Below, one piece after another: positions 4,712 through 57,405 of a DNA stretch of 64,000 nucleotides; positions within the stretch are counted from its first letter, which is position 1; each line of letters opens with the position of its first letter. Origin of the DNA: Octopus vulgaris (Eukaryota); the NCBI GenBank assembly GCA_951406725.2, contig OX597833.1:1426001-1490000 (forward strand), written 5' to 3'. The position numbers were made by a program, and so were the translations under genes. The notes below the pieces were generated by a model that made no database searches, was not told where the DNA came from, and saw only the letters and a program-made list of their open reading frames with translations.

Positions 4712-5068
4712 ATATAACGGGAAGCTTTATGAAAATAAACAAAAGACGAAGTCAGGTGGAATACAAACAAACAATTGCATTAGTATGGCGCTCAGGAATA
4801 TAAATAAAACAAGTCTTTTACGTTTCGAGCCTACGCTCTTCAGCAGAAAGATCCACAGAAAAGAAACACGGAGAGAAACAAGAAGAGAATACATATATAT
4901 ACATATATACGACAGGCTTCTTTCAGTTTCCGTCTACCAAATCCACTCACAAGGCTTTGGTCGGCCCGGGGCTATAGCAGAAGACACTTGCCCAAGATGC
5001 CACGCAGTGGGACTGAACCCGGAACCATGTGGTTGGTTAGAAAGCTACTTACCACACAGCCACTCCTG
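4406..5068 (-). mobile_element. SINE family A, interrupted in its TA tract by an HHR mini-element
   Basis: Reverse complement of 825-1240 with an extra insert at 4717-4890. Confidence 0.9.
4814..4851 (-). ncRNA. Minimal type I hammerhead-like motif (A6-variant family, copy 1; element about 4717-4890)
   Basis: TCTTT-CTGCTGA-A-GAGC gtag GCTC-GAAA-CG-TA-AAAGA. Confidence 0.6.
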
Positions 5069-38722: not shown

Positions 38723-39117
38723 ACGAATGGAGACTGGTTTGCAGGAGGATATGCAATAACATTCTTTATAAACAAAAGAAAAATCTAAGATGATGAAGGA
38801 CCGATTCTTAATGGATGTCACGTGTGTCTGGACCCGGATATGGAGGCATGCAGAGACAGACAGTTGTAATGAGGACCCGGCATTCAAGAGAGGATCTCAT
38901 TCATACGCTCACGTATCGGCCTCGATGTAGATGCGCAGTGACTATATGCTTAACGTGAACTTAAGCAAGCGTAGCTGTTCCCCTCTCTGTAATGCCCTCA
39001 TGGCAAATTTTCATGAAATAAAGTAGCTTGCCCAACAACCACATGGTTTCTGGTTCAGCCCCACTGCGTAGCACCTTGTAAGTGGATTTGGTAGACGGAA
39101 ACTGAAAGAAGCCCTTC

Positions 39118-39149
<32 letters not shown>

Positions 39150-39152
<3 letters not shown>

Positions 39153-39790
39153 ATTTTTTCTAGAATTTTTTCTAGAATTTTTTTGCTACCCTTATATTTA
39201 TTAATTAATGATTTTTTGGCTAATTTTGAAATTAAATTAAATAGTCTTTGACTATCTTTCCTTTCTCACTGGACTGCTGGTAGCGGAGAATTTTTTCTAG
39301 AATTTTTTTGCTACCCTTATATTTATTAATTAATGATGTTTTGGTTAATTTTGAAATTAAATCAGCAGTTTGTATTTGCTGCTGAGAAGACCGCGCAATT
39401 GCGGTAGATTTTGAAAATTTATAGCATATAGACTTGAGGCTTCCTTACCATCGCCTCGTGGGTATATACTCGTCCTAGGCTTCTTTGCTGACGAGGCACG
39501 CCAGTTGTAAATAAATTTAATTTAATTTAATTAATTTGTTTACTAAAGTTTGCCGAAACTATGCATAGTCCAGAGATGAAAGGGGTAAACATTTTTATTT
39601 CTCTTTCAATTTCAGAATTACAACTATTAGCAGTTTGAGTTTGGCTGCTCTTTCTAGTGAGTCGAATGTCCTATTATGACAATTCCTTATATCTTTGAAT
39701 GTATATTATATAGTCTTTCTCACTGGACCGCTGGTAGCGGAGAATGTTTTCTAGAATTTTTTTGCTACCCGTATATTTATTAATTATATA
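39150..39790 (+). mobile_element. Partial-tandem pLTR/retrozyme-like element (family H1)
   Basis: Direct repeat CTTTCTCACTGGA..GCTGGTAGCGGAGAAT..GCTACCC at 39261 and 39715 (period 454 bp) with a central HHR. Confidence 0.75.
39482..39576 (+). ncRNA. Type I hammerhead ribozyme, intact canonical core
   Basis: TCTTTG-CTGACGA-GGCA..(GTAAATAAATT/AATTTGTTTAC)..TGCC-GAAA-CTATGCATAG-TC-CAGAGA, with 12-nt palindrome ACTATGCATAGT and a GUC site at 39568-39570. Confidence 0.85.
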
Positions 39791-40261
39791 TATATATATA
39801 TATACATATGCATGCGTGTGTATTTGTGTTTCCACGCCACCGCTTGACGATCTGTGCTGATGTGATTGCATCTCCGTCAACTAGCGGTTCAGCAAAAGAG
39901 ACCGATTGAAGAAGTACCACGTTTGAAAAAGAAATACTGGGGTGAGGGTGTCAATTCATTTTATTAAAAGTTCAAGGCGGTGACCCAGCATGGCCGCAGT
40001 TTCATGACTGAAATAAATAAAAGATGAAACAAAAATAAAAAGATTAAGGGCCGACAAAAAAAAGGAAGTGAGACAGATCTGAACTCTGTCCAAATTTGTT
40101 TGTCTGTCTCTCCCCCTCTCTGTCTCAATCCTCCCTCTCTCTTTGACTCTGTTTGATCCCCCACCACTACCACCACACACACACCATGCAACTCCCTCAC
40201 TCACAAGCAGAGCTGTAAATTTATTTAGAGTTTGGCTGTTTGTGATTGAAGTTAGCAAATT

Positions 40262-46446: not shown

Positions 46447-46532
<86 letters not shown>

Positions 46533-46814
46533 TAACAGTGAAGAAGTTTCAATGAAAATAATAATGCAATACGAAAGTATTGCTTTCCAGTAAAAGATAG
46601 CCCGTAAGGGTAAAATTATACATATAAAAGTAAATAAATGGCACAACGAAGTACCGACATTTACTGGGAAATAGCAATCGTAATAAATCGACGCTATTGT
46701 ATAGCTTCACTGCGTATATACTAGCAAAGACGTGTGTGTGTGCAACAAACATGAAAAAAATTTGTCTTACCTCTAGGAAGAACATCTGAAAAATGAAAAA
46801 CCTAGAAACGGATA

Positions 46815-46885
46815 ATGCAGGACCGGTTTCAGACTCTTCAAATACGTTTGACAACGTAGATTTGATTTGCCTTCATCAGCTGCAT
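46815..46885 (-). ncRNA. Type I hammerhead ribozyme, intact canonical core
   Basis: ATGCAG-CTGATGA-AGGC..(TCAAAT cTACGTT gtca AACGTA TTTGA)..GTCT-GAAA-CCGG-TC-CTGCAT, with stem III palindrome ACCGGT. Confidence 0.88.
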
Positions 46886-47302
46886 ATACCTGGACAAAAT
46901 TTCATATGTTGCCACTTCTATGCCAGTACACTCGTCTGAACGCCAAAACGTTAACAGAACGAGAACAGTGAAGAAAGCTTCAATGATATATTCTATAGAT
47001 ATATTATATCTATGCATATGTATATTTATGTGTGTTTGTGTATGTATGTATACATGTATGCATGTATTTTTGTGCGAGTATATATGTATATACACATCCT
47101 GCACTATATATTATGAGTAAGAGAGAAAAGTCAAGGAAGATCGATAAAAAACGAATTGTAATTCTGTCTACTTAAGAGTGTGCCTGTATATACATAGATG
47201 TAAATGTGTCTATATACACCTTAGGTACGTATACGTACACGCAGAGGAGCACATGAACACATGAACACCTATACGTGCATACACAAACACATACATACTT
47301 AC

Positions 47303-51390: not shown

Positions 51391-54255
<2,865 letters not shown>

Positions 54256-56690: not shown

Positions 56691-56757
<67 letters not shown>

Positions 56758-56759
56758 AT

Positions 56760-57186
56760 CAATATAGGGTGGCAAAAAAATTTTGTAGAATCTTATTGCC
56801 ACCAGCGGCCTAGTGGGAAAAAATTAAATAGTCATAAACCATTTTTAAGTTCAACATCACAATCAAGGAACGGCCATAATAGGCCATTCACCCACTAGAA
56901 ATAACAGCCAAAAGCTTCAACCGCAAAATAACATCAATTCCGTAAACCAGGAGAAAATTAAAAAAAACATTTACCCTGTAATTTCTTATACGATGCACCG
57001 TTTCGTCTACTGTTTAATGGTAAACTAACCTGATTAAGAAACGGTGCATCGTATAAGAAATTACAGGGTAAATGTTTTTTTTAATTTTCTCCTGGTTTGC
57101 GGAATTAATGTTATTTTGCGGTTGAAGCTTTTGGCTGTTATTTCTAGTGGGTGAATGGCCTATTATGGCCGTTCCTTGATTGTGAT
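56760..57186 (-). mobile_element. Family H1 mini-element forming a 149-bp-arm palindrome
   Basis: Arms 56856-57004 / 57038-57186 (2 mismatches, 33-nt loop). Colinear with 39555-39790. Confidence 0.8.
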
Positions 57187-57405
57187 ATATATATATATAT
57201 ATACAACAATTTTGTGAGAAGGGGGTGAGTCAATTACATCAAGTCCAGTGTGAAACTTTTACTTCATTTATCGACCCCGAAAGGATGCATGGCAACGTCG
57301 ACTCTGGCGCTATTCGAACTATAGATCTTGCCCGGTGTTCTATCGATTCGACCAGATCACTGCCTTACTACTTCTACTACTACTACTACTACTACTACTA
57401 ACAAC

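Follow-up and report, generated by a model that had tools for sequence, protein, structure and literature searches.

A decayed copy of a probable non-LTR retrozyme, bearing a type I hammerhead motif, in a (TA)n tract of Octopus vulgaris

Insertion site and structure of the element

The DNA analyzed here, a 64,000-nt stretch of Octopus vulgaris (contig OX597833.1 of assembly GCA_951406725.2, positions 1,426,001 to 1,490,000, forward strand; hereafter the window), is rich in microsatellites and contains 211 short reading frames, among which small remnants of Penelope proteins may lie. Translation of a stretch from one of its abundant repeats gives three matches at E ≤ 1e-12, and the two that carry a name come from Octopus vulgaris, in line with an octopus host. 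At 39153–39786 (+), an element lies inside an older, dispersed host repeat that we take to be a SINE: the left arm of this repeat (39030–39120, +) adjoins a (GT)n(AT)n tract that forms the left half of the insertion target (39118–39152, +), and on the far side 39787–39935 (+) comprises the remaining, right-hand (TA)n portion of this target and then the right arm. Elsewhere in the window, nine copies of the host repeat have both arms within 800 nt. In eight of the nine, TA/TG microsatellite alone (16–60 nt) separates the arms, compared with 684 nt at the hammerhead locus; the ninth has 279 nt between its arms, including another hammerhead-like insert. The near-empty sites in these eight paralogous copies thus identify the element as an insertion of approximately 39153–39786 in the (TA)n tract. 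A microsatellite target is a mark of Penelope-like insertion; within (TA)n a target duplication is unreadable.

The locus consists of pieces of three units and carries one hammerhead only. A direct repeat (39261–39332 and 39715–39786; 69 of 72 positions identical, 454 apart) delimits one complete unit (39261–39714, +) of 33% G+C, in which the frame listing contains no ORF of 100 aa and no reverse transcriptase plus GIY-YIG frame. This unit measures 454 nt here and 467–469 nt in other copies, relative to which about 15 nt are missing; the repeats on which an earlier note based a 454-bp unit are therefore real, whereas the family period is 467–469. The second member of the direct repeat (39715–39786, +), which contains a hairpin at about 39733–39769, is both the start of a third unit and the 3′ end of the insertion. 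Upstream, 39162–39237 copies 39287–39362 (74 of 76 positions identical) and belongs to a 5′-truncated first unit (39153–39237, +), so that the earlier reading of one monomer plus a partial second unit was right in seeing more than one unit and missed this third partial copy. Ahead of it, at the 5′ junction (39153–39175), a motif of 11–12 nt is duplicated, possibly by re-priming as copying ended.

The first unit ends at 39238–39260 (+), given that 39241–39260 comes after 39709 in other copies, and would lack about 344 nt (469 minus 125). The short motif TTGAAAT is shared by both edges of this putative gap, for which a jump between templates while the copy was being made would account as well as a deletion afterwards. 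The missing segment would have contained a second hammerhead, and the original insertion would then have comprised about 2.1 units. Two consecutive units with complete hammerheads were not found at the locus, which on account of its single hammerhead is classed as a retrozyme derivative, not as an active retrozyme as Li et al. (2026) use the term.

The hammerhead motif and its predicted folding

The complete unit contains a type I hammerhead motif (39482–39576, +), open at stem I and with the three stems and the CUGANGA, GAAA, and NUH elements in place. Stem I (39482–39487 and 39571–39576, +) has five Watson–Crick pairs and one G.U pair, and is followed by the core CTGACGA (39488–39494, +). 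Stem II has a 4-bp base (39495–39498 and 39551–39554, +) that is extended by an internal loop and a long AT-rich hairpin (39495–39554, +), the extension being present in further copies of the family. GAAA (39555–39558, +) leads into stem III, a perfect 12-nt palindrome (39558–39569, +) that is weak as a hairpin and strong as an intermolecular duplex; GTC then places the predicted cut between 39570 and 39571 (+). The complete core, the 6-bp stem I, the extended stem II, and the palindromic stem III of the earlier note thus all lie where it had placed them. A second, degenerate hammerhead suspected by eye at about 39382–39430 was reported by neither descriptor.

That such a motif could have arisen by chance in AT-rich repeat DNA is so improbable as to be negligible. 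With at least 4 bp required in stem II, 2 in stem III, and 6 in stem I, a descriptor matched the real window twice (39488, +, and 46879, −) and gave no match in any of 300 block-wise dinucleotide shuffles; its loosest setting gave a match in 7 of the 300. The motif is also conserved in a multi-copy family and in a sister copy of 71% identity. Consistent with chance are a fold z-score of only −1.77 and the lack of any match to an Rfam hammerhead model here, whether at the gathering score or among the 16 matches at E ≤ 10; the latter is likely a consequence of the long stem II insert.

Without its flanks, the motif is predicted to pair between two ribozymes. The palindrome alone is predicted at 0.0 kcal/mol as a hairpin vs. 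−15.9 kcal/mol as a duplex. A single copy of the bare motif has a minimum in which the core is mispaired with GUC; when two copies are folded together, their minimum coincides exactly with the double hammerhead (−53.1 vs. 2 × −20.3 kcal/mol). With flanks the palindrome is still paired intermolecularly (12 of 12 positions in all four constructs), and stem I is lost from the predicted minimum, in monomer and dimer alike, once 12–64 nt of flank are added (0 of 6 pairs in each of the three longer constructs), so that the active fold of the 39482–39576 copy is not predicted in context. Dimer-gated cleavage is a model prediction for the family that is doubtful for the copy at 39153–39786, which is likely inert.

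Palindromic stems III permitting ribozyme pairing are shared with dimeric Penelope-like hammerheads and with satellite 2 of newt and axolotl, as described in the parts of PMC4209133 and PMC7229834 drawn on here. Unlike the hammerheads described there, the octopus palindrome is long enough to form a 4-bp hairpin, so that a monomer might also be active.

Sister copy and 3′ ends

A sister copy of 71% identity (56738–57201, both orientations) consists of two inverted, 5′-truncated arms that both begin near the GAAA of the hammerhead and run out into (TA)n, each at a different one of two 3′ end sites. One arm ends where the 39153–39786 insertion ends, 216 nt past the cut (distal site); the other ends some 80–95 nt earlier, about 130 nt downstream of the cut site (proximal site). 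This spacing of about 80–95 nt exceeds the usual 30–40-nt Penelope-like tail. Each 3′ end lies 15–20 nt beyond a hairpin. The distal hairpin (~39733–39769) has z-scores of −2.51 here and −2.84 in the sister, and the proximal hairpin (39664–39685, +), just upstream of the second class of family 3′ ends (~39700–39705), has z-scores of +0.66 and −2.50, respectively. Relative to the locus, the sister has one compensatory and one wobble change in stem III and one compensatory change in the distal hairpin; covariation across these two independent lineages is not significant (105 of 500 shuffles) and is better than in all six slid controls.

The inverted 5′-truncated copies and the partial tandem (pseudo-LTR) layout are marks of Penelope-like elements. 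Together with the clean insertion into the TA tract of a dispersed SINE-like repeat and the fixed 3′ ends, the inverted truncated sister points to reverse transcription, and it is very improbable that the family is instead a satellite or minisatellite spread by DNA recombination, with the hammerhead as a relic. The tandem period would suit a satellite, and local tandem amplification after insertion is discussed in the sections cited of a recent preprint (bioRxiv 10.64898/2026.07.22.740005).

A multi-copy family with head-to-tail units

Parts of the stretch are present in 20 of the 24 listed sequencing runs, under four organism codes, and none of the runs contains half of its words; no run among those listed as sharing the stretch is labeled RNA. 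Four runs, X1, X3, X6, and X11 (organisms A, C, B, and B), were mapped onto one non-repeated period (39238–39714). X1, X3, and X6 are likely-DNA or unlabeled runs from three organisms, and any RNA status of X11 is a guess; the 64 contigs and the back-joint of X11 carry no information on expression. The family is represented by 529 contigs in X1, 512 in X3, 1089 in X6, and 64 in X11, covering all 30 bins in three runs and 28 of 30 in X6. An exact 19-nt pattern had no match in metagenome contigs.

Head-to-tail joints step back by 469 (X1, X3, X6) or 467 (X3); two further back-joints come from X1 and X11, and joints in all four runs fall within 467–469. Contigs also extend from the 72-nt repeat into the hammerhead side and through it (X1 records 3, 4, and 7; X6 records 25–27). 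The fraction passing into unlike sequence is 0.01–0.02 in X1, X3, and X6, and 0.15 in X11. The cyclic joints and the scarcity of run-on into unlike sequence indicate that the family forms a 469-nt path that closes on itself and does not represent the tail of a longer element. No contig with two tandem hammerheads was seen in the four runs, in which the shorter side of a back-joint reaches at most 48 letters. Among 24 of 250 loose ends listed, some enter (TA)n at the proximal 3′ site (X1 and X3). Opposite-strand joints occur in X3 and X6; one, present in both runs, maps to 39390, in a region with two short hairpins (39361–39407) upstream of the hammerhead within the unit. An intron was considered and rejected: the possible acceptor before stem I varies in the family (39477), and no GT–AG joint is among the joints listed.

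The same evidence bears on whether the locus is the 5′-truncated tail of an autonomous Penelope-like element, its repeats being local products of template jumps or DNA duplication. We regard this as improbable: the same cyclic path is found in contigs of three organisms, the same sequence follows the 72-nt repeat in two successive units, and the unit contains no frame of 100 aa. An inverted truncated sister would also be expected of such a tail, family D in the same window resembles tails of this type, and a minor branch into an ORF could lie beyond the 24 of 250 loose ends listed. On balance the evidence favors the non-autonomous (retrozyme) branch over a pseudo-LTR remnant of a coding element. 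Lacking a frame for reverse transcriptase or GIY-YIG endonuclease, the element is not classed as autonomous, and its assignment to a clade would need a protein.

Sequence variation further separates the family from this copy of it. Among the 40 of 65 variant rows listed, none falls within 39486–39548 or 39550–39574 (core, stem II base, and stem III), with reads cut at 39505–39544; X3 record 21 covers 39439–39584 without gaps, so that the family as such has the long stem II. The letter usual in the family at 39485 converts the G.U pair to G–C, rendering stem I fully Watson–Crick, and a G>A variant at 39575 (10–47% of depth) would disrupt one pair of stem I if not matched by a change in its partner. 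At least 11 of the variant rows (again among 40 of 65) separate the locus copy, in each of the four runs, from at least 93% of the depth of the family. For three of these 11 the locus itself offers a sibling copy for comparison, and each of the three differences is confined to a single copy. These differences indicate that the locus is decaying.

Other elements in the window

A second complete type I hammerhead, unrelated to the first (46815–46885, −), has a 6-nt palindromic stem III and a long stem II, and lies in an element (46526–46986, −) of the same layout and a different family, with direct repeats of 30–31 nt that are 431 apart and an end in (TC)n/(TA)n; a dimer fold is predicted for it as well. 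No sequence likeness was found between the 39153–39786 family and family C of the window. A further family has five copies (4846, −; 27921, +; 32332, −; 37284, −; and 59286, +) with a minimal hammerhead-like motif, the core of which deviates at position 6; every copy terminates in (TA)n at a common site, the 5′ ends vary, and the copy at 4846, too, lies within the TA tract of the SINE-like host repeat. The presence of two other hammerhead-type families within the same 64 kb indicates that such inserts are common and that the setting is ordinary. The window also encodes a reverse transcriptase frame of 497 aa (51788–54068, +), the matches of which carry PF00078 and the frameshifted continuation of which is broken by trinucleotide repeats; this reverse transcriptase is presumably R4/Dong-like, not Penelope-like.

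Relationship to described retrozymes and Penelope-like elements

The short head-to-tail unit with a type I hammerhead, its non-coding, 33% G+C composition, and its membership in a multi-copy family are features of retrozymes, and the unit is very probably a non-autonomous element of this type. Animal non-LTR retrozymes, as characterized in the parts drawn on here of Cervera and de la Pena (2020; PMC7229834) and of Li, Clavereau and Pollet (2026; bioRxiv 10.64898/2026.07.22.740005), likewise consist of short units of low GC content that are non-coding and carry one type I hammerhead; they occur head to tail and as monomeric derivatives, and Penelope-like elements are proposed to mobilize them. 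A mollusc example is that of Mytilus (350–390 nt). The octopus unit (454–469 nt) is larger than the 150–450 given for animal retrozymes in PMC7229834 and falls within the 51–972 of the 2026 preprint. It differs further in its 12-nt palindromic stem III, where animal retrozymes have 1–2 bp and a short loop, in its long AT-rich stem II, and in the single hammerhead of this locus; the cited parts of those sources name no cephalopod host, and the octopus family is described here from DNA and contigs. Long stem II loops are also found in two plant elements tabulated in PMC8557442. In the literature, no octopus or cephalopod retrozyme or hammerhead repeat was found beyond the entry for Hydra-1_Obim (below), a search to which Repbase, Dfam, and an octopus repeat library did not belong. 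Recently active Penelope families are reported for Octopus vulgaris in PMC13282606, the consulted part of which does not mention ribozymes. Since animal non-LTR retrozymes are already described, the octopus family would add a member to them (PMC7229834; bioRxiv 10.64898/2026.07.22.740005).

Among Penelope-like elements, the Hydra clade (Craig et al., 2021; PMC8557442, as far as drawn on here) shares a (TA)n target, a hammerhead near the 3′ end, and a near-palindromic stem III (9–10 nt in 25 of 25 Hydra families, File S2), and occurs in octopus (Hydra-1_Obim, Octopus bimaculoides). In contrast to those elements, the family described here has no reverse transcriptase/endonuclease frame, and its stem III is 12 nt. 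By eye the 3′ end of Hydra-1_Obim looks unrelated, and five short motifs of the family had no match in the Hydra-1_Obim supplement consulted for PMC8557442, where no autonomous partner was found; without sequence likeness to Hydra-1_Obim, a Hydra-type partnership is a guess from architecture. A further parallel is the Poseidon element PAc of Anolis, which, in the account cited (Frangieh et al., 2024; PMC11167929), has an AT-rich target, two 3′ sites downstream of the hammerhead, and a stem-loop near the starts; unlike the octopus unit, PAc is autonomous, has its two sites at a distance of 30–40 nt, and bears a minimal hammerhead that is assisted by protein.

Proposed mobilization

We consider the locus to be, with reasonable though qualified probability, a non-LTR retrozyme in a state of decay. 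Such a unit, about 469 bases long, Penelope-like, and non-autonomous, would have its tandem transcripts cut by paired hammerheads, likely circularized, and likely returned to the genome by a Penelope-like reverse transcriptase and endonuclease. The earlier suggestion of a retrozyme-like or partial-tandem pseudo-LTR element copied from a circular or tandem template is supported by the short non-coding cyclic unit, read-through of the cut site, and the Penelope-like insertion marks.

By the proposed mechanism, tandem source arrays would be transcribed to multimeric RNA, in which two hammerheads would pair via the 12-nt palindrome and cut after GUC, releasing unit-length RNA. A host ligase would close these molecules to circles, for which there is precedent in other animals (PMC7229834, in the part cited). 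The (TA)n tract would be nicked by a Penelope-like protein, which may belong to the Hydra clade with its (TA)n targets, and reverse transcription would begin inside the RNA, 15–20 nt past a conserved hairpin; counted from the cut, the start would lie about 130 or 216 nt downstream. Copying would then proceed for about two laps, the first unit having lost some 344 nt including its hammerhead.

The 3′ ends are internal to the cut-to-cut unit, and the insertion continues across the cut site, so that a linear monomer cannot have served as template, leaving a circle or an uncleaved multimer. If the unit is of retrozyme type, a circle is the fairly likely template, a judgment that derives mainly from precedent: unit-length circular RNAs are demonstrated for the retrozymes of coral, mussel, and axolotl in the cited part of PMC7229834, so that comparable animal units do yield circles. 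The same non-autonomous unit might instead be copied from uncleaved linear multimers, the hammerhead being a passenger or serving another step and no circle being needed, which we view as rather unlikely, although it is the most credible of the alternatives. A multimer would explain the read-through of the cut site no less well than a circle, and once flanks are included the predicted fold is not the active one. For the anole element, according to the portion of PMC11167929 used here, internal initiation is shown, hammerhead cleavage is dispensable for insertion (in vitro, mutants of the ribozyme insert normally), and the substrate is mainly unprocessed RNA. Against a mere passenger stand a core and stem III that look invariant among the 40 of 65 variants listed and that covary in the sister (not significant). 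In Xenopus, eight of nine predicted retrozyme dimers showed no cleavage, and the preprint reporting this calls the mobilization mechanism unresolved and, in the sections cited, leaves invertebrate pairs unstudied (bioRxiv 10.64898/2026.07.22.740005).

Within the retrozyme reading, the full scheme for octopus, comprising circular RNAs of about 469 nt, palindrome-gated paired cutting, Hydra-type internal initiation at a hairpin, and two laps of copying, is a tentative proposal that in all its parts together is unlikely to hold. The locus shows no sign of a host function and is a decayed copy among many. The family bears on the question of who mobilizes animal retrozymes and how a circle devoid of a 3′ end is primed: its mappable 3′ ends within the cut-to-cut unit, its inverted truncated copies, and its defined target make the idea testable in octopus genomes and RNA. 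If true, the proposed scheme would provide junction-level evidence that internal initiation lets end-less retrozyme circles insert.
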